A DNA stretch of 64,000 nt from Dictyostelium discoideum. Its lineage: Eukaryota. Both the position numbers and the translations under genes were made by a program. The DNA is taken from NCBI GenBank assembly GCA_000004695.1, contig CM000153.2:4672001-4736000 (forward strand), given 5' to 3'. Positions 31,129 through 46,707 of this stretch are shown here, piece by piece; position 1 is the stretch's first letter, and every line of letters begins with the position of its first letter. Below the pieces are notes generated by a model. That model did no database searches, had not been told where the DNA came from, and was given only the letters and a program-made list of their open reading frames with translations.

Positions 31129-32067
31129 TCAAGGTATAATAAAAAATGAATTTCCTCCACCCGCTTTAACTAAACTTTTATCATTTCCTTTGATTGAAGG
31201 TAATAGTTGTGGAAATGATTTATTATCACCATCTTTACCAATTATAATTGGTTCACAAAGACCTAATTGATAATGTTCATTCCAACCAAATGAATATATA
31301 TTATTATTATTATTATTATTATTAATATCATTTGAATAAACTTGAATTAAGATATGCTCAGAACCAATTGAAAAGTTTTTAATTTTATTTCCATTAAAAG
31401 ATTCGCTATTTAATAGTTTAAATTGATTTGAATTACTATTATCAAGTGATAGATCTCTATTATCACCTAAAATACCATACTCACCACGACCACATATATA
31501 TAATTTATCTTGGTTCGTCAATAAACAACTATTACTCCAACCACATTGTATCTCTTTTATTTTAATATGATTTTGATGTAGAAGTTGGTAATATAAATGA
31601 TGAAATATCAATCACACAAGGATTTGATTGATCAATGAAATTACCATTACCTAATTGTCCGAATTTATTTTGACCAAATGATAATACATTTTTAAAATTA
31701 ATATCCAATAAAAGAGTATGCTGAAATCCACATGAAATTTGAATGATTTTAATTTCATTTTTAAAATTAATTAGTTTTGGTGAATCTTGAACCATTGGAT
31801 CAGCAATATCATTGATATTATTATTATTATTATTACTCTTTAAACTATTTCCATCAATTAAATTTGATAATTGACCAAATTTATTACAACCCCAACCGTA
31901 TACATCATTTTCACTTGATAAAGCAATTGAATGTCTCATTCCACATGATACACTAACTATTCTAATTTTATTATTAAATAAAATTTCAATTAACTTTGGT
32001 TCATTTAAATTCTTTCTTTCAACTTTCTTTTTCTTTAATACAATTCTTTTTTTAATAACTCCACCAC

Positions 32068-32110
<43 letters not shown>

Positions 32111-32288
32111 TTTATTATTTGATGTTGATAAAGTTGAATTTAAGGAACAAGTTGTATCTATACCCAATTGACCACGACTATTTGAACCCCATGAATAAAT
32201 ATTTCCATTATTATCACATGCTAAACTATGTGCCCATCCTCCTGAACAATTTTTTATTTTAATTGAGTTTATTTTAAAGTAATTTAAT

Positions 32289-32786: not shown

Positions 32787-33221
32787 ATTAATAAAATAGG
32801 ATTATAATTAAAAAATGTGTTAAGAAGAAAAACTTACATGAGGATCTAATGGCATATTTAAAAAATCATAAGTATCTTTAAACTCTTCATCAATAAGGGC
32901 AGTAAGATTTTGTTGAGTTAATCTATTTGGAATATTTCTAATCATTAAAGATGTTCTTGTATCAACTCCACTAATTATATTCTCTGGAATTAAAATACAA
33001 GTTGGATCTACAGGTTCTTTTGGTTCCTTTGGTTCTTTTAATTCTTTCTTTCCTTTGGAATTGGTTGAATTTCTTAATGTTCCATTGTTTTGATTCTTTT
33101 GTTGTGCCTTTTGCTGTTGAATCTCTGATTCCAATTCTTTTCTTCTTCTTTCAAGTTGTTCAAGTTCTTGTTCATTTTCAAGTATACTAACTTCATAAGC
33201 TGTTTGATTATATTGATGTTT

Positions 33222-33265
<44 letters not shown>

Positions 33266-33266
33266 G

Positions 33267-33308
<42 letters not shown>

Positions 33309-33390
33309 TATACTATTATTCATATTATTATTATTATTATTAATATTTGAACTATTATTGTTATTATTATTATTATTATTATTATTAGTA

Positions 33391-33467
<77 letters not shown>

Positions 33468-33747
33468 GTTATCATTATTATTATTATCTAATATAGAACT
33501 ATATTGTGATTCTGCAAATAAATTAAGAGATGAATTTGTTGGTGAATTATTGTTACTATAATTTAATAGATTTGGAGTATTACAACCACTGTTATTATTA
33601 CTATTATTATTACTATTATTATTACTATTATTATTACTATTATTCTTATTGCTATAAACATATGAAGAGTAAGAAAAACTATTTCTAAAATTATTATTAT
33701 TATTATCATTATTATTATTATTATTTATATTATCATTGTTATTATTA

Positions 33748-33829
<82 letters not shown>

Positions 33830-36242
33830 TTATATTATTTAATTGATTATAACTACGATTTAAAAATAAATTTGTAGTTTTAATTTTATTAACAGCATCA
33901 TTTGTTGAAGAAAAGAAAGAATCAGGACCAATTAAATCAATGAAACCAGCACGAATAAAATTTTTCTTATGAGAATCACGTAATTTAACAAAACAAACTT
34001 GAATCATTCTTTTTTTATATTGAGATACCATTTCGTATAGGATTTGAATTGAAGAAGCATCGATTACAGGTATATTACGCATATCGAAAACTATACCATA
34101 TAAAGAGGATCTTTGATTAATTGGTAAATTTAACATTTCTGAAGGATGAGCTAATGCACTACCAATATTTTCAATTCTAAATAGGATTTCTTTAACTTGA
34201 CCGATATTTGCAAAATAAAGGGATTCTTCAAATCTAATGACCAAAACACCATCAACTTGTTGAGCCTCTGGGAAAATAATGATATCTTTAAATTTCGAAG
34301 TTGGAGCATCACCAGGTAATTTACCCAACACAGTGAAATGTGGTGCAGAAGATTGTCTAATAACCAATAGAATCGAAGCACCAATACTAACGACTAAACC
34401 AACCTCGACACTGAAAATAAAGGTACAAACAAAGGTGGCAGAGAATAATAGTAAATCTTTCCAAGCCCTTAGCTTCCAAAGGAAAATAATATCATGAACT
34501 TCAAATAAACCCAATGCGGCCACGAAAATGATAGAGCTCATAATTACTCTTGGTAAATATTGGAAAATTGGCATTAAAAACAATAGGGTGAATAATACTA
34601 CAATAAAAGTGACAGCACCAGCCAATTGAGTTTTTGCACCAGCTTTATCATTTACAGCGGATCTTGTCATTGATGCATAGATTGGATATGCTAAAAATAT
34701 TGAACCAAATATATTACTTGCACCAATTGCCACCAATTCTCTATTTGTTGAAACTTGATAATTATGTTTGGTTGCGAAATTCTTACTAACCGCCATTGAC
34801 TCAACGAAACCCACAATACTAATGAACAAAGCTGGACCAATCAATTGATTGACCATATCCCATCTATTTAATTTTGGTAATGTTGGTATTGGGAAACTTG
34901 TAGAATAATAACCCAACACAGCAATGCCTTTCTCTTTTAAATGAAAGCCAGCTGAAACTGAAATCCCCACCACTACCACCACCAAAATTGAAGGTATAAA
35001 AAAGATTATATGATGTATTATTTTAGTTCTAACCTCTGGACAACATCTCTTTTTAATTTGACCCATAATTAATAATGCTATAATTGAAACGACACTAATG
35101 ATCAATGATAGCTCATTGACTAAATCGAATTTCTTAAATATTAAAGGTATTTTACGCCAACCACTATCCGCAACTGATATGCCTAACAATGTATCCATTT
35201 GATCGAATAGAATTGTAAAAGCCACTGCATTAATGAAACCTCTAATCAAGGGACGTGATAAAACCTCTGAAAGGAACCCAAATCTAAGTAAACCTAAAAT
35301 CAATGAAATCACACCAACCAAAAATGCCAATATATTTGCAGATGCTATCATTTCATCAGTTGTAAGTGGTACATCAGCAGACTCACTTATCTCTTTCAAT
35401 GTTGTACCAACGATTAAACTAACCAATGCTTCAGGACCAACTGATAATTGTCTTGATGTGCCCAACACTGCATACATCAATAATGGCATTAAACCAGTGT
35501 ATAAACCATAGATTGGTGGTAATCCAACCAATAATGCATATGCTAAACTTTGTGGTACCAACATAATTGATGTTGTAACTCCTGCCGTTAAATCATTAAT
35601 TGCATTGGCTCTATAATCATATTTAGGTAACCATCCTAAAATTGGTATATAATATTTAACTTTATTCTTTAATCTTTTAATCTTTTCTTCTTTATTTTCA
35701 ACTTTTTTACCATAATTTTCTTCAAAATTTAAATCTAAATCTAAATTATTATTATTATTATTATTATTACTATTATTATTATTATTATTATTACTATTAC
35801 TATTAGCACTAATTAAAGAAGGTGAAACTATTGGTGATAATGATGGTGAAGATGAACTATCACTTTCAATATTACTATTATTTTGTAAATTCTTTTTATT
35901 TAATTTTGTTAAGAAACTACTAAATGTAAGTGGTGTTTCTTCAATTAATGGTCCTGATTTCAATGTACTATTGATTGCATCCATTGATTGACTTAATGGC
36001 ATACCATTATTATCAAGTAATATTGCATTGTTATTATTATTATTATTATTTTGTCTATTTCTTAAATGACCAGAAGAACTAATTGATAATGGTACACCAT
36101 TATACCTTCCATCTATTTCTATATTCTCTTCTCTTTGTTGTTCTTGTTGTTCTTGTGGTTGATAAGGTTGTTGTTGATTTGAAAGTAATGGTGATGATTC
36201 ATTCTTATCATTAGATGAACTCCAAAATTTCCAATTTACCAT
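32484..36242 (-). CDS. SLC26/SulP-family anion (sulfate) transporter with a STAS domain, fused through a ~330-aa poly-Asn/Gln region to a C-terminal Mei2-type RNA-recognition motif (RRM_2). Two exons: 36242..32838 and 32744..32484.
   Basis: SulP core …YYIPILGWLPKYDYRANAINDLTAGVTTSIMLVPQSLAYALLVGLPPIYGLY… and STAS …VLVIRFEESLYFANI…. After the low-complexity spacer comes …TSLMIRNIPNRLTQQNLTALIDEEFKDTYDFLNMPLDPH. Donor GTAAGT, 93-nt intron, acceptor atag. The final exon TKVSRGYAFINFKDHMNVYRFHQKFFHTRWKNYNHDKICEINYAIIQGEEALLQS… matches the PF04059-like RRM_2 of Mei2 proteins. The single ORF stays open throughout, and the spacer lacks the poly(A)/poly(T) tracts found in every intergenic region here. 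Confidence 0.65.
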
Positions 36243-36743: not shown

Positions 36744-39700
36744 TTATTTAAATAAATGAGATTTCTTGGAAAGTTTTACAATACCAGTGATAACATCATC
36801 TTTAATACCAAAAGATTTCAAAACTGATCCACCAGTTGTAGAATTACATTTTGAAATGATAACCTCGAATGAAACTGTAGTAGAAGGTTTGAGGAGTTTA
36901 ACGAATATCTTGATAAGTTCTAAAATAAAGAATCTAAAGTTATCAGATAATTGACCTCCAAGAGTTGAATCGAATTTAATTAAAGAACTTCTTGAGACAC
37001 CCAATGCTAAAGAAACCTTTTTAACAGTTTCATAACTTGTTGGTGAATTTACAATCATCAACAAATCTGAATATAAAGTAACTATTTCTTTTTCAAATAA
37101 TTGTTGTTGTTTTTGTTTCATTATATCATTTGATTTATCTTCTTTTTTAGATTTTTTCTTTTTTTCTTTTTCCTCTTTTTCTGTTTCCAATGCCCAACTT
37201 TTTCCAATGATTGATGATGATGAGTTAAAGATATCTTCATTTTTGGATTTTGATAATTTTGATCTTGATCCATCTTTTGACAATGATAAAGAGGATGACG
37301 ATGAAGACGATGATGATAAATACTTTGGTGGTGGTGATACGTAATCTTCATTATCGTCAAATAAACCAAAACCACAATATTCTTCTTCATCAGACTCTTC
37401 TTGTTCTTTTTCTTTTCTTTCTTGTTGCTTTTGAGATTGTAGCTGTGGTTGTGGTTGTGACTTTGGTGGTGGTGGACAATAATCATCGTATTCGCCAAAT
37501 AATCCAAAACCACAATCCCCTTCTCCATCAGACTCTTCTTGTTCTTTTTGTGGTCCTGATTTTGGTTGTTGTGGTTGTATTTGTTTTGATTCATATAAGG
37601 ATTGAGACAATACCCTTTGTAATTGATAATCTTCTTCATCACCAAAAAGACCAAATCCCATGTCTTCATCTTCATCATATGATTCCTTTTTTTTAGGTAA
37701 CGATGTTGGCTTTGAAACTGTTGTTGTTGCTGCTGCTTTTGTTGTTGTTGTTGATGATGTTGGATAGTCACCAAAAAGATCAAAACCCATATCTTCATCA
37801 CCCCACTCTTCTTCTTCGTCTTTTGGTTGAGATTTGGCTGCTAAATAGGAAGCAGGAGTAGAAGAAGCTGTAACAAGAGAAGTAATAGCATTGGGTACAC
37901 CTCCAAAAGAGTATGAACTTCCACTACCGCCGCCACCACTTCCTCCTTTCTTTACTGGTTCGTCTGACCAAGCATCATCGTCGTCGTCGTCTTCGTCATT
38001 TTCAATACAATCAATAGCTACTCTTCTACGACTTAGAGAATTTATTAATTGTGCAGAAAGATTATCAATAGTTTTGGCTTCTTCTTTTAATTTCTCTGGA
38101 ACTGCTTTTAATGAATATCCTCGTTTTATTGAATTCAAAAGAGAACCTTCATCACTTTTCAAAGAGTTTGCCTCTATCGAATTATTTTTTGAAGTTGATG
38201 ATGATGGTGGTGGTGGTGGTGGTGGACCAGATGATGATGGTTGTGGTGGTAAAGTAGTTCGTTTAAACCTTGGCATTCCATCTGATTTCTTTGAAATATT
38301 TCTTTCTTCTTGTAGATTTTCTTTTTCAGGACTATAACCAATATGAGCCGAAGATCTTCTCATCATTCCTCCAAATACTTGTGGAGCTGGTGGTGCTGGA
38401 CTAAAGACATTAGTGGATACACTTGGTCTTGGAGCATTTGGCAATGGTGGTGGTGTTGGTGTTGGTGTTGGTGTTGGAGTTGATGAGAAAGAAACTGTAC
38501 TCATTCTGGAATATCCAGCAACCATTGGTTTACTTGGTAAATTTATTTCAGAGAGGGTACTTTCTTCTTTGGCTTTAGATTTTGAAAATGATGGTGATGA
38601 TGGGGAATATGATGTTAAAACTGGTAATTTGGATGGTTTTGTTGGTGCATAAGATGGTGATACTGGAGAATAGGATGGTATTGTTGGTGCATATAGTAGT
38701 GATGTTGGAGTATATGATGGTGATACTGGAGAATATGATTGCGAAGTGGAAGCATATAGTGGAGAAGTTGAATAAGATGGTGATGTTGGGGAATAAGATG
38801 GTGATGTTGGGGAATAGGATGGTGATGTTGGGGAATAGGATGGTGATGTTGGGGAATAGGATGGTGATGTTGGGATATAGAATGGTGATGTTGGGGAATA
38901 AGGTTGAGAAGCTTGGAAAAATAATGATGGTGGTGGTGCACCACGTCCAAGTGATGTTGATGGTGGTGGTGGTGGTTGTGGTGGTGGTGGAGCACCACGT
39001 CCAAAAGCGGTACCAATATTTCCTCCCCTTCCACCTCTTGATGATCCTATACTTCCACCTCTTGATGATCCTCCTCTACCTCTACTACTATTGTTTGAAC
39101 GAATATTTCCTTCAGGAGATGGAGATCTAGATCTAGTTACACATCTATATTTATCAATTGATATTCCTCTTAAACTTACTTCACCTCTACTACTATTGTT
39201 TGAACGAATATTTCCTTCAGGAGATGGAGATCTAGATCTAGTTACACATCTATATTTATCAAATGATATTCCTCTTAAACTTACTTCATTACTAAAACTA
39301 TCAGATTCACTATCACTTCCACTTTCACTTTGATTTTCACTAACTCCTCCTTCATAATCTATATCAGTATTATTATTATTTGATACAATTTGATTAACAA
39401 CAATTGGTTTATAAGTTGTTGTTGCTTTTTTAATACCAAGTTTTTTAGGAGTTATTGACCATTGTTTAGAAGAAATAGTTGATTCAATTTGTGGTTCATC
39501 TTTTGGTTCATTATCAACATTATTTTCAGGTTGATGTTGATGACGTTGATCAAGGTTAAATTCATTAATTTCTTGTTCATCTTCAATAAATTGTAAACAT
39601 TCAGTTGTAGAATCACGAATTAATTGAAGTAAAAGTGTTGTATCTTTATAAGAATCTTCAGATAAGGTATCCAATTCAGAGATTGCTTTGTCAAATGTAT

Positions 39701-42432
39701 TCTTTGAAATTTGAATTGATTTTTCAAAATCACCATTCTCTTTATAATAGTTTGCAGATAATAATGATAATTGTAATAAAATCGGATTGGTTGGTGATAA
39801 TGAATTTTCTGAACGTTGTAAAGCAGACTTTAAAGTTGATTCAAACTTTTCACACCATTGTTTCTTTGAATATTTATTATCATCACAATTTAATAAACTT
39901 TTATAAACTGTACATTGATTATTCATTAAACTAATAATTGCCTCTTCATTATTTGAATGATTTGTTGATGATTCTAATAATCTTAATAAACCTTTACCTT
40001 GATAAATTATATCCTCTTTTAATTTCTTTTTCTCTCTTAATAATTTACTTGGTGTTGTTGGTGTAGTAGTAGTTGTTGTTGTTGAATCATCATTAATTGA
40101 TAATTTATCAACTCTTTTTGAAATTAAATTATTAATTGTATCTGAAAGTAAATTTAATTCTTTCATTGAAAATTCACCAAATGTATCTGAAATTTGATGA
40201 AATACATTAATTGTATCAGAGAACTTGCTATTTGAATGATATTGTTCAATTAATTTGGATAATTGATCACGTTTATTCAATAGAATTGGATCATTTGGAT
40301 CTTGATCAATACCTTGAGATTTATCTTCCCATGCAATGTATGGTAGAGAATCAACAATAGTTTGAGAGATAATCGATTGAATTGGTGGTAATTTTGAGAA
40401 TGTTTCATGTTTTTCCCTCTTTTCAACTGCAACAAAACTTGTGAATGGTGTTACAATCGAGTATTTAATGGATAGGTCGATGACATCATTCTTTTTCTTT
40501 AATTTAATTAAATCATGTTCATGTTTATTTTGACTATAGGTACCATCTTGATATTCTCTAATCATTGAACGAGCAGCTAAACGATGAATTAAATTACCCT
40601 TTATGAAACCAATCTCTGGTGTATGAACAACGTTGGTGATTAAACCACCACCAGGTGCTTGGCAAATCAATGTTGCACGAGTACAAATACCAGAGAAAGC
40701 ATACATAACTTGACGTTCTTTCTTAAATATTGAAGTTATAGTAGCAGGTGATTGAACTATGGAATTGGTATCACTTGAATCGAATTTCACTGAAATATTC
40801 GACATTGCGGGTTGAGTTAACCGTTGAAGTTGATCAATGATTTTCTTTGGATTTGGACGTTTATTTGTTTGAATAAACTCTGGATAACCACCACCTAAAC
40901 GGCAAATACTCTTTACGAAATGTCTACTACAATGCTCACCAATACCAAATGCAAACATTCTACAATAGGGTGATGCTTTTTTAACCAACATTTGAACCAA
41001 TTCTTCATTGGCTACATTACCATCTGTGAATAGTAAAATATTATGTGGATTGGTTGGTTTAGCTTTCTCTGCCAACAAATAAAGTGATTGTAATGGTTGA
41101 TGTAATAATGTACCACCATAGGATGTTTTTAAATGATTGATATGGCTCCAAGCAATTTGTAAATTTGATTCAGTCGGTGGTACACCAATACCGAAAAGCC
41201 AGTCAAAGGTATCACCAAAACAAACCACATCGAATAACACCTTTTGCATACCACGTAAATTTGAAATAGTGATACGAACTGCACGTAATAAATCCTCAAA
41301 TGCATCACCAGCCATCGAAGATGATAAATCAATTAATAAAGTAACCATAGTATGGCTATCCTTCATAGTATTATCAATATCCAATTTTGGATAAAATGCC
41401 AACATACTTGCATGATGACCTTTCTCATCAACCTCAACCCACATTCTTGGTGAATAAGGCTCCTCCAAACCAATCAATAATTGGAAATTCTTATCTAAAT
41501 ATTGATTATCTTGATTATTTAATTCAATGGTTGCTTTTGTATGAGTACGTTTTATACGAACGTCATGAGTTGGTGAAATTAATTTTACAATATTATAAGG
41601 CATTTCAATACCGACCGAAATGGATAAATCAGATTGTTTTTGTGCCAATTCTGTCACTTGAACAGTTGATGTTACCGATTGAGTATTACTACTTGAGGAT
41701 TGCAATCTTTGCTTTGGTGTGATTGAACGTGGTAATACAAAACTAATATCTAAACCATCGATTGATAGCTCAGTAACATAAACTATCTTAATTAAAACAT
41801 CACAATTTGGTGGTAAATTACCAACTGAAACTGTGAAAACATCAGGTTTATCCTCATCCATTAAATATGCACCATGACCAGCTGCAACTGCTTCACGATA
41901 CTCTCTTTGTGCTTTCTCCTTCTCTTTACATTCACCAATTATATGTTTACCATTTACATAAGCTTCGAAACCACAAACTGCTCCCATTTCATCCAATGGA
42001 AAAACATACTTTGCTTCAATCATATTCTTTGAATTATTTTGATAATGTTGATAAATTGTAACTTCACCAATTAAATCTAAAATTTTACCTTTAACATGAA
42101 CAGATTTTAATGGTATAGCATTATCACCACCACCATTCTTTGAAATTAAACCAATTTCTTGATTATCATCATCATCATTACTATCATCAATTAATGATTT
42201 TTGAGGTAGTGAATTTGGAACTTTCTCAGATTCAATAGTTGGTTTAACTGATTCTTTTGAAATTTCAAGTAATTTATCATTATTTGATGATAATGATGAT
42301 TTTAATATTGGTGGTATTGTTAATGAATTTAAATCATCAAATTCAATTAGGTATTGAATTTTTTGTTGTTTTGAATCATAAATTACAATTTCATCATCAA
42401 TAAAATCAGATTGTTTAACTGTATTATTTGAC

Positions 42433-42466
<34 letters not shown>

Positions 42467-44594
42467 CAACACCTTGAACACTATCAAAACCTTTTGGTGG
42501 TTTTGATAATTGAGTTTGATGAGTTGTATATTTTTTAATTTGACCTAATGCAACTGAACAAATAAACATATACTTTGAAAGTGTTTTTGTTGATGCTTTA
42601 CAATATTGAATTGAAGTGGATGGTTTAACACCAAAATAAATACCACTACCCAAATAACCAATATCTCTTCTACCAGCACCAATTGATGTTGATACATTTG
42701 GTGTTAATAAACCTCTACTTAGTATACCCAATATATTCGATGGATTACTACCATGATAAAGTGTTTTCAAATTACCAACTTCAAAATTATAATTATCTTC
42801 TTCTTTTCTTATAATTTTAAAAATATTTTTAATTTTTATTAAATTATTATTATTATTATTATTATCTATACAATTTTCATTATTATTATTATTATCATTA
42901 CCATTACTTTTTTTAATTGATTGTTGTGGTTGTGTTAAACCTTCAATTTTTGTACCACCTTTAATTTGATCAGTTATACGTTTAAAATCTTTTGAAGATT
43001 TATCTAATTGATTAATTTGACAACGTAATGCACGATATTTTGCCATTTCACCACTACTTGCAGAAGTTAATGTTTTTGAAACACCACTTAATGATTCACC
43101 AACTGATAAAATATCTTTCATTAATTGTACAGATTCTTGAATATCATTTAATAGTTCATATGAATTATTAAATTTACCACCTGGTGGTTTCAATTGTGGT
43201 AATGATCTAAAGATTTCATCGATTAAATCGGTTGATTCTTTACTATCAATTTTACCACCATTACCTCTTAACACTGTTGATAATTGAAATAATGATAATT
43301 CAGCTTTATCAACTTGCATTAATGTAATGTCACCCATTGATGTTTTAATTGAACCTTCAGGTGAAAGGTGAAGTTTACTACCATTACCAAACTTATTACC
43401 CAATGTTGATATAGCTTCATCATATAATATTTTAATTAATTCATGAATTGGTTTTGGAATTTCATTATTAATGTTATTACTATCATCAATATTATTGGTG
43501 GTGGTTATTGTTGTATCATCAAATAATTTATTATAACATAATTCTTGTAATTTATTAGAACCAATTAATGTTGAACCTAATTGAAATTTTGAATATTTTT
43601 TATTTATTAAATGATCTTTAAATATCTCATTATATTGGTCCAATGAATTCTCCAAATTTGTAAATGGTATCCATTCTTTAACTGAATCATTTATTTTATT
43701 TGCATCTAAACTACCATAATTTAAAAATACTCTATAATATGATTGTGTTTGGTCACCACTACCACCACTATTATCACTATTACCAGTTTTAATTAATTCT
43801 AAAATTTTACCTGCAACATGTAATTCCAAACAAATAAAACTTTCAGCTTTTGGTGATATTAAAACATTATGTTTAACAACATGATATTTAGATTCTGTTG
43901 GAAATTTATCGTTTTCAACTTTATTATTATATTTAATTCTTTCATATTGCTGTTGTTGCTGCTCACCATTAGTTGATGATGATGATGATGATGATGGATC
44001 TTCTAATAAATTTGAAAAATCCAATGATTTATAATGATATTCTTTAATATTATATAATGAAACTAATGAATATTCATTTGGTGATAATAAATTACCATTT
44101 GAAATTGAATCTTCTAAATATCTTTTTGACACAATTGGAATATTCAATTTAATTGCCTTTTTAATATTGGATGATAAAGTTTCTAAATTTATATTCTTTT
44201 TTTCTTCTTCATCTTGATAACTATTATTATTATTATTCTTTTCATCAACTTTTATTAAATCATTAAAATCACCACTAAAAATATAATAGTTAATCTAAAA
44301 ATAATTTTTATATAAAAAAAAAATAAAAATAAAAAAATAAAAATAAAATTAAATGTTTCACAAATAATTATTATATGTGTGTTAATAGTTGAATGATTTA
44401 AATTTTTTTTTTTTTTAATTTTTTTAAATAAATAATAAAAATAACAAACTTACTTTTTGATTTAAAATCATTGAGACATTACCACCATGTGATTCTACAT
44501 ATGATTGTAAAACCTTTTTTGATTTTAAGCCACTATTTCCACAATCCAAATAAAATGTAAGATTATTTAACACAGAGTTTTTATTTACAACCAT
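36744..44594 (-). CDS. PARP4/vault-PARP-like poly(ADP-ribose) polymerase: BRCT, PARP catalytic, VIT and vWA domains, followed by a very long low-complexity C-terminal region (about 2560 aa). Two exons: 44594..44454 and 44294..36744.
   Basis: Exon 1 [47 protein letters not shown] (BRCT-like) ends at donor GTAAGT. A 159-nt intron precedes exon 2, which starts [19 protein letters not shown]… in phase 0. PARP catalytic region …[18 protein letters not shown]…GSGIYFG…YLIEF. VIT domain …[42 protein letters not shown]. vWA domain …[11 protein letters not shown]…. The C-terminal tail carries YSPTSPS heptads, a tandem duplication and four DDDMGFGLFD-like motifs. Confidence 0.85.
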
Positions 44595-45095: not shown

Positions 45096-46707
45096 TTATT
45101 TAGAAAAATATTGTTGTTGATTGTATTGTTGACGTTGTGGTGAATTTTGTTGTTGTTGTTGTTGTTGTAGTTGTTGTTGATTTTGTCTAATTATAAATTG
45201 AACTTTTTTAACTGTTGCTCTAATAATGAATTGATCTCTACTTAGTGATCTAACATTTTTAAGGTATTCTTCCAAAGATATTCTATTTGAATGTAATGCT
45301 TTATCTAAGTAGTAGAGTAAATCTTCGATGGTTGAATCATCAGAGACCAATTTTAACAATTGTTTTGAGAGTGAATCTTTAGGACCCAATATTTGATCGA
45401 TATCAATATTTGAATCTGATTTATCATTTTCGTTTATCCATTTCTCCAATTGTTCAATGTTTTCATTCAATTGATCGATTTGACTATTGTAAGTTGCCAA
45501 TTGATTCGATAACTCCTCCTTCTCAAGTAATTTTTTCTTTGATAACTCTTCCAATGATTTGTTATGAGCTTCGAAATCCTTAATCTCTAATGATGTAGTG
45601 TCATAAAATTTCGATAATAATTCTTGCAATTTAATTGTACATTGATCAACCATTTCACTTTTTTTATCAATAACTGGTTGTGGTGGTAAAGGTGGTAATG
45701 GTTTAACTGATGGTGATGTTTGTTGTTGTTGCTGTTTTGCTGCTGTTGGTTCTGTATATGCTGGTGGTGGTGATGGTTGTTGTGGTGGTGGTATTATATT
45801 ATTATTTTGTTGTTGTTGTTGTTGTTGAGTTGGTGGTGGGGGTGGTGATGTTTGTGGTTGTTTTGGTGGGGGTAAAGATGATGTATTATTAGTTTTATTT
45901 TTAATTGAATCGTACGATGGTGGTGGTTGTGTATATGATGAGGAATTTGAAGTACTTGGTGATGAACCATATGGTGGTGGTGGTTGTTGTTGTTGTGCTG
46001 CCACATTATTATTGGTTGGTGATGAACCATAAGGTGGTGGTGATATATTATTTTGTGGTGGTTGTGGTTGTTGTTGTTGTGATACTCTTGTCTCTAATGG
46101 TGGTTTAAAACTAAATGCATCACATAACATTTTTTAACAATGACCCATCGTTGAATTGGAACTCCAACTTGATATATATGGATGATAAACTAATCCCTGT
46201 AAATTTACATGGTGATGATTTTTTACAATCCTCATCTCTGGTGTTGGATCTAAAACCATTGTTGGGAATTCTTGTGGATAGTTTAATGGTACCCAAACTA
46301 TAATTGGTAAATAATAATTAATACCTTTAAAACAAATTGGAATTGTACCTTTTATACATATTAAATTAACTCTATCTTTAATAATAATTTTTAAAAATAA
46401 AATAGTGAAAAAAAAAAAAAAAAAAAATAATATAAATTATAAAATTAATAATAAATTTTTTTATTTTTTTTTTATTTTTTTTTCTTTTTTTTTACTTACT
46501 TGGTATATTTTCATAAAACGGTGATAAATTTGGGAATAAATGAAATGTTTCTTTTAAATCTTTACTTATTCTTAGTGGATCTCTATAAGCTCTAATATAA
46601 TTAAGAAAAGTTGATAGAGTATGCATTTTATTATCCACTATGGCTAAAGTTGGATTAACCATTTGTTGTTGATGTGCATGCATTGGGTATCCATGATGAC
46701 CATACAT
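45096..46707 (-). CDS. tsg101: TSG101/Vps23 (ESCRT-I) homologue: UEV domain, Pro/Gln-rich linker, coiled coil and steadiness box. Exons 46707..46500 and 46375..46137, with an in-frame TAA at 46136..46134, then 46130..45096.
   Basis: UEV exon 2: carried codon N, then …RVNLICIKGTIPICFKGINYYLPIIVWVPLNYPQEFPTMVLDPTPEMRIVKNHHHVNLQGLVYHPYISSW…. C-terminus …LLKLVSDDSTIEDLLYYLDKALHSNRISLEEYLKNVRSLSRDQFIIRATVKKVQ matches the TSG101 steadiness box. The two parts are co-linear and in the same frame but separated by TAA (…STMGHC*KMLCDAFSFKPPL). Confidence 0.6.

Follow-up and report, generated by a model that had tools for sequence, protein, structure and literature searches.

In the slime mould Dictyostelium discoideum, we found that the tail of a PARP4 (vault-type PARP) orthologue carries copies of short peptides from three other protein families: the C-terminal tail found on P-stalk proteins in the ribosome, the heptads of the RNA polymerase II (Pol II) C-terminal domain (CTD) and the poly-proline-WH2-C-A module of the WASP family. 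The gene is encoded on the minus strand of contig CM000153.2 (positions 4,672,001 to 4,736,000 of the forward strand), a stretch of 64,000 nucleotides which is referred to here as the window and in which all coordinates are given. The tail, at 36744-39300, belongs to a protein of 2563 amino acids. We read it as intrinsically disordered, with its motifs under selection; chance does not explain them. Our preferred reading, to which we assign a probability of roughly 0.55, is that short docking motifs are displayed along the tail as a multivalent and conserved array, which would recruit the natural partners of the copied peptides to an ADP-ribosyltransferase, probably at vaults.

P-stalk-tail-like motifs

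A sequence-only reading of this DNA had described four spaced acidic motifs resembling the tails of ribosomal P proteins, and all four are present where it had placed them (Table 1). They have the form (E/D)n-[MC]GF[GD]LF and continue after LF with G or D, then D or E, then Y. The suggested alignment to P-protein C-termini held up: Pfam family PF00428 (Ribosomal_60s) was matched in three stretches at profile positions 55-88 (46.7 bits, cut-off 28.1), and the PDB matches of the four-motif region were the C-terminal tails of uL10/P0, P1 and P2 only. From the protein's own composition the hexamer core would be expected ~3e-4 times. The likeness extends over ~13 residues, EESD-x-D-MGFGLF-D/G, and includes the serine which corresponds to the CK2 site of the stalk; P proteins carry the CK2-site motif SEESDDD (PMC11624264), to which EESD is the PARP4 counterpart. 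When the four-motif region was searched against 5.8 billion sequences there were no matches at E ≤ 0.001, a collection of that size being too large for motifs so short to score as significant.

The consensus (E/D)n-S-D-x-D-MGFGLF-D/G with a CK2-type serine is thus common to PARP4 and to the ribosomal P1/P2/uL10 stalk. Unlike those of the stalk proteins, however, the PARP4 motifs are internal (200-360 residues before the C-terminus), are present in up to four copies and are carried by an ADP-ribosyltransferase which has no P1/P2 dimerisation or uL10-binding domain, about the last third of the PF00428 profile being matched. By this sequence comparison PARP4 is a mimic of the P1/P2/uL10 stalk family and not a member of it.

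The P motif was found in 7/7 amoebozoan orthologues, in one to four copies, and beyond Amoebozoa in PARP4 of Aplysia (two copies), several teleosts (clownfish among them), a frog, a lungfish, a millipede and Euglena gracilis. The strict core was present in 18 of 216 PARP4 family members, with 0.29 occurrences expected. In our preferred reading, no other element of the tail is as old or as widespread as the P-stalk-like motif.

A ubiquitin domain adjoins the motifs in PARP4 of Aplysia (P0010, residues 1364-1505) and Acanthamoeba (P0007, residues 1839-1910). The Aplysia ubiquitin domain ends in LRGG directly before the two P-stalk-like motifs, so that cleavage by a deubiquitinase could free a fragment bearing the P tail.

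Pol II CTD-type heptads

The YSPTSPS-type heptads which had also been noted in this tail are confirmed in position and now number ~14 units, of which four, not five, are perfect. The contiguous run includes one 6-residue unit and its distal units are degenerate; TRF reported a period of 21 bp, 15.2 copies and 73% matches at 38584-38900. The first six heptads use near-identical codons (TAT TCC CCA ACA TCA CCA TCY), which points to amplification or homogenisation in the recent past. At the nucleotide level, the first six 21-bp units (38772-38900, minus strand) are nearly identical and the distal ones have diverged, as though the array were still expanding, or undergoing gene conversion, at its 5' end.

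Alignment to the CTD consensus, as had been proposed, gave 36.5 bits against PF05001 (RNA_pol_Rpb1_R, cut-off 20.3), and the only PDB matches of the region were RPB1 CTDs and CTD peptides, with E values down to 1e-74; by profile, the heptads are inseparable from the Pol II CTD consensus. A perfect heptad would be expected ~5e-5 times from the composition of the protein. PARP4 and RPB1 share the exact tandem YSPTSPS consensus, whereas the PARP4 array has only ~14 units, is distally degenerate and is unattached to RPB1, a Pfam scan having found no RNA polymerase domains in the protein. YSPTSPS arrays were found in 5/7 amoebozoan orthologues and recur further afield in the PARP4 proteins of a sponge (Sycon ciliatum, with 7 perfect units) and of the molluscs Nucella and Dreissena.

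A WASP-type VCA module

The stretch which separates the heptads from the P motifs holds a module consisting of a poly-proline run, a WH2 (V) motif, a central (C) region and an acidic (A) region. We built a VCA profile from seven orthologous modules, and this matched N-WASP in the PDB across the whole of V-C-A (6uhc_H, E 3e-9) as well as WAVE1 (3p8c_D, E 2.7e-7) and several WH2 peptides. The module was found in 7/7 amoebozoan orthologues, although its WH2 part was undetected in one (P0002), and Pfam WH2 was found in four of the seven modules. In sequence terms this is a canonical WASP-family polyPro-WH2-C-A module. It shares with N-WASP and SCAR/WAVE the poly-proline, a WH2 of the form LLxxIxxGxxLK, a C helix in which L and R are conserved and an acidic stretch whose Trp is invariant, and it aligns with N-WASP and WAVE1 from end to end. 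It differs from the WASP family in that it is embedded in a PARP and not C-terminal, and in that H. album has its heptads inserted between V and C; a Pfam scan of the whole protein found no WH1, SHD or WAHD regulatory heads.

A second acidic-tryptophan element, resembling another Arp2/3-binding 'A' motif, precedes P motif 1 at 37797-37826 (minus strand). In the PARP4 of Pelomyxa schiedti (P0200, residues 1354-1380) a run of prolines is followed by a WH2-like motif (NLLQQIQNGKQLKK), and precomputed annotation of Dreissena PARP4 (P0011) lists actin (PF00022) and ubiquitin domains in addition to the heptads. The WH2-like motif of Pelomyxa and the actin domain of Dreissena indicate that a link between actin and PARP4 recurs outside the dictyostelids.

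Conservation of the tail across PARP4

Orthologues do not lack the motifs, as they would had these been a chance product of low-complexity composition, and both the P motif and the heptads are by their distribution family-wide traits of PARP4 and not an oddity of Dictyostelium. The linkers between the motifs could not be aligned among orthologues and the order of the modules varies: besides the H. album arrangement, the heptads follow the P motif in Balamuthia and the P motif precedes the VCA in Acanthamoeba. Conserved motifs, unalignable linkers and varied order are together what one would expect if each short linear motif had been selected independently.

Compared with vertebrate PARP4 (vPARP), the order BRCT, PARP (H-Y-E), VIT, vWA, long disordered region and C-terminal helical domain is the same, and the tail occupies the position of the disordered region which vertebrates encode in exon 30. 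Some fishes, lungfish and frog keep a P-stalk-like motif in that region. The amoebozoan proteins differ in adding a 14-3-3-like domain, the VCA, CTD heptads and one to four strong P motifs, none of which is recognisable in mammalian PARP4.

Gene model and domain architecture

Across the window G+C content is ~22%. The protein is encoded largely by a minus-strand open reading frame (ORF) of 7.4 kb (44147 to 36744), to which we added a first exon separated by a short intron (Table 1); the acceptor used is the sole one which leaves the frame open, and residue numbers in the full-length protein equal ORF numbers plus 96. The BRCT match in Pfam was found after removal of the 159-nt intron and crosses the junction of exon 1 and exon 2, which supports the two-exon model. 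Pfam thereby recovered all four domains which had been claimed to lie upstream of the tail, and a 14-3-3-like domain besides, in the order BRCT, PARP, VIT, vWA, 14-3-3-like, tail. The H-Y-E triad is intact when aligned with rat and Acanthamoeba PARP4. The 14-3-3-like domain is present in 7/7 amoebozoan orthologues; a 14-3-3 domain and 'actin or actin-binding domains' have been described in some PARP4-like proteins, including those of amoebae for 14-3-3 (Perina 2014, PMC4245714), and the PARP4 clade itself by Citarelli et al. (PMC2964712).

The top homologues, which are annotated as PARP4, come from D. purpureum (the nearest orthologue, 61% identity), Heterostelium, Cavenderia, Synstelium, Balamuthia and Acanthamoeba; metazoan PARP4 ranks after these. 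On this homology the protein is an orthologue of PARP4. Searching for homologues of the region after the vWA and 14-3-3-like domains found only 3 proteins and added nothing. We considered and rejected a gene fusion or mis-assembly artefact: the reading frame runs unbroken for 7.5 kb, and the same architecture is seen in orthologues of comparable length.

Table 1 Features of the PARP4 gene and protein, with coordinates in the window.
Feature	Coordinates	Strand	Evidence or remark
Exon 1	44454..44594	(-)	47 codons, BRCT start; ATG at 44594, GTAAGT donor at 44453
Intron, 159 nt, GTAAGT...TTTAG	44295..44453	(-)	
Exon 2 with stop codon	36744..44294	(-)	Spliced protein 2563 aa
PARP catalytic domain, H-Y-E triad	42339..42845	(-)	PF00644, E 1.7e-29
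VIT domain	41778..42110	(-)	PF08487, E 1.3e-35
vWA domain	40875..41345	(-)	PF13768 and PF00092
14-3-3-like domain	39606..40238	(-)	PF00244, E 9e-20
Two 35-aa units, VSLRGIS(F/I)...	39075..39284	(-)	TRF; recent species-specific tandem duplication
RGG/SRGG box	39000..39080	(-)	Translation; similar RGG run in H. album
Heptad array: 13 contiguous units and 1 separate (YSPSSPS), 4 perfect YSPTSPS	38589..38900	(-)	TRF, translation, Pfam, PDB matches
Poly-proline run (P7) upstream of WH2	38205..38225	(-)	Tandem-repeat scan, alignment
WH2 (V) motif	38097..38156	(-)	7-module profile matches N-WASP, WAVE1 VCA
Central (C) region	37998..38060	(-)	Aligned with N-WASP and WAVE1 C region; L and R invariant in orthologues
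Acidic (A) region with tryptophan	37962..37997	(-)	W invariant in orthologues
P motif 1	37767..37826	(-)	PF00428, sequence
P motif 2	37638..37697	(-)	Aligned to uL10/P0 C-terminus
P motif 3	37491..37550	(-)	PF00428
P motif 4	37353..37412	(-)	PF00428
All-helical folded C-terminal domain in MINT (MVP-interaction) position; candidate MINT only	36747..37130	(-)	AF2 pLDDT 92.7

The 105-bp duplication

The tandem duplication of about 105 bp which had been called perfect is real but not perfect: a comparison at offset 105 found 105 of 106 positions identical, with a lone TTT/ATT mismatch which gives F in one unit and I in the other. TRF gave a period of 105, 2.0 copies and 99% matches at 39078-39288. 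The 35-aa unit is not duplicated in orthologues, H. album having one RRSRSRSPSPP followed by RGG, and so among the three tail features described earlier this comparison makes the duplication the only lineage-specific one.

On the minus strand the duplicated RSRSPSP segments (39075-39284) follow shortly after the 14-3-3-like domain (39606-40238), and the RSPSPP of H. album fits the 14-3-3 mode-1 motif RSxpSxP. The domain and these segments could form an intramolecular phospho-switch.

The C-terminal domain and vaults

The AF2 model of the C-terminal domain (pLDDT 92.7) had no match in the PDB, whereas the control model of the Acanthamoeba C-terminus matched 9bw6_B (probability 0.99, TM 0.64). 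A metazoan MINT profile likewise found the C-termini of Acanthamoeba (E 2.4e-11) and Balamuthia (E 2.3e-7) and did not match those of dictyostelids, so that, unlike in vertebrate PARP4, the dictyostelid domain is not detectably MINT. The interface between MINT and MVP was solved by Lodwick et al. (PMC12280208). A 2026 cryo-electron tomography study found 80S ribosomes inside ~8% of the vaults in the D. discoideum cytosol, the orientation of the enclosed ribosome being fixed; its proximity labelling placed PARPs among the most enriched vault-proximal proteins, with several PARPs including one annotated PARP4, and found 69/79 ribosomal proteins to be vault-proximal (PMC13100048).

Neighbouring open reading frames

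All of the following are on the minus strand and were assigned by eye. The ORF at 32820-36242 (1140 aa) is SulP/STAS-type anion transporter-like, with very long Asn/Gln runs; its C-terminal stretch (MIRNIPNRLTQQNL...DFLNMPLD) resembles an RRM of the Mei2 type, and the ORF probably extends into a further exon. The ORF at 45096-46130 has the look of a Tsg101/Vps23-like protein's C-terminal half (Pro/Gln-rich, then coiled coil and steadiness box), and that at 31129-32167 resembles RCC1-type repeats.

Discussion

The sequence-only reading was right about the identity of the protein as PARP4 and about the identity of the motifs it listed, and it overlooked the VCA module, the 14-3-3-like domain and the vault context. 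The identity and conservation of the motifs and the architecture of the protein can be read from the sequences compared here; from these we infer partner binding, a vault location for this protein and a consequence for the partners bound. The ribosomal P-stalk tail recruits the translational GTPases eEF1A, eEF2, eRF3 and eIF5B and also binds GCN2, and the one to four P-stalk-like motifs of PARP4 would bind translational GTPases and GCN2. The heptads would provide docking sites for CTD kinases, phosphatases and readers, and the polyPro-WH2-C-A module would bind profilin-actin, G-actin and Arp2/3. Such partners would come to lie beside an ADP-ribosyltransferase which is catalytically competent, probably at vaults or within them, and would there be modified, sequestered or tethered. 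Toxins which ADP-ribosylate proteins classically target eEF2 and actin, so that it makes mechanistic sense for an endogenous ADP-ribosyltransferase to carry a docking tail.

Several points weigh against this recruitment model, in which binding by any of the tail motifs is a prediction. The true P-stalk tail is C-terminal and the PARP4 copies are internal, and ricin A chain and some other partners use the terminal carboxylate, which the acidic residues after LF in PARP4 could replace. Mammalian PARP4 has at most decayed remnants of a P motif, which is therefore dispensable in some lineages. CTD kinases are mostly nuclear and vaults mostly cytoplasmic. The gene in the window could not be mapped to an accession in the vault proximity proteome, where eEF2 is weakly enriched (log2 fold change 0.45) and Arp2/3 is mixed, with ArpC4 up 1.05, Arp3 down 0.59 and Arp2 not significant (PMC13100048 supplement). 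It should be noted that this proteome does not discriminate between the readings considered here, and neither supports nor refutes recruitment.

A more specific possibility, which we regard as unlikely, is that P motifs on vault-bound PARP4 capture translational GTPases, or the 80S ribosomes carrying them, and so link vaults with ribosomes. If this were true, stalk mimicry would explain the ordered 80S encapsulation in Dictyostelium vaults, eEF2-type factors, actin and Arp2/3, and CTD-binding enzymes would be within reach of an ADP-ribosyltransferase, and the presence of the motif in PARP4 of Amoebozoa, Metazoa and Euglena would make ribosome or GTPase capture an ancestral function of the vault PARP.

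It is similarly doubtful that the motifs work inside the protein itself or the particle, with the acidic-hydrophobic repeats, heptads and SR/RGG segments driving self-association or condensation, or binding the protein's own 14-3-3-like or vWA domains, MVP or vault RNA, the peptide likeness then being convergent. The 14-3-3-like domain does adjoin candidate phospho-motifs of the RSRSPSP type, tails which form condensates typically have RGG and poly-Pro segments, and module copy number ranges from 1 to 4. However, the P-tail match reaches over ~13 residues including the CK2 serine and thus beyond a hydrophobic patch, exact YSPTSPS is kept from sponge to dictyostelids, and the VCA aligns with N-WASP and WAVE1 over its full length.

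We give an equally low probability to the tail being an integrated decoy, mimicking peptides targeted by toxins and by viral or bacterial effectors and thereby luring these to the ADP-ribosyltransferase or the vault cage, a trap of innate defence. Each copied peptide is a known pathogen handle: the P-stalk tail is used by ricin, Shiga toxin and trichosanthin, and the PDB matches include the CTD peptide chain 5m3h_X for the heptads, which is complexed with influenza polymerase, and 3m1f_V (VPA1370) for the VCA profile, a Vibrio WH2 effector. Conserved motifs within fast-changing linkers are also what mimicry decoys should look like, and the disordered region of vertebrate PARP4 (human exon 30) is under strong recurrent positive selection, for which direct contact with pathogen proteins has been proposed (Daugherty et al., PMC4038475). 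That selection was, however, measured in mammals, which are without the P motif, and conservation for >1 billion years in free-living amoebae suits a housekeeping role equally.

Functionless slippage repeats in an AT-rich, repeat-prone genome are a highly improbable source of the tail, being the best account of the recent, species-specific 35-aa duplication and compatible with the shared codons of the first six heptads and with the simple repeats abundant in the window, but largely refuted for the heptads, VCA and P motifs by the presence of motifs in every amoebozoan orthologue, their recurrence in distant phyla and a composition-based expectation of ≤ 3e-4 per protein.

Our literature search found no paper linking PARP4 with P-stalk motifs, YSPTSPS or VCA. 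The protein family is known and its tail grammar appears to be new, comprising a mimic of the P-stalk tail away from the ribosome, genuine CTD heptads on a protein other than RPB1 and a full VCA on a PARP, the first two of which by sequence recur beyond Amoebozoa. The question of what vaults do has stood since 1986, and no enzyme other than PARP4 is present in the particle. With its VCA module PARP4 would be a candidate activator of Arp2/3 in Amoebozoa. Arrays of the genuine Pol II CTD consensus, such as recur here, are rare outside RPB1, and a copy of the P-stalk tail outside the ribosome offers a concrete, mutable handle on how ribosomes or translation factors might be engaged by vaults. Together, these features would recast PARP4's 'variable linker', which is positively selected in mammals, as a platform for the display of motifs.

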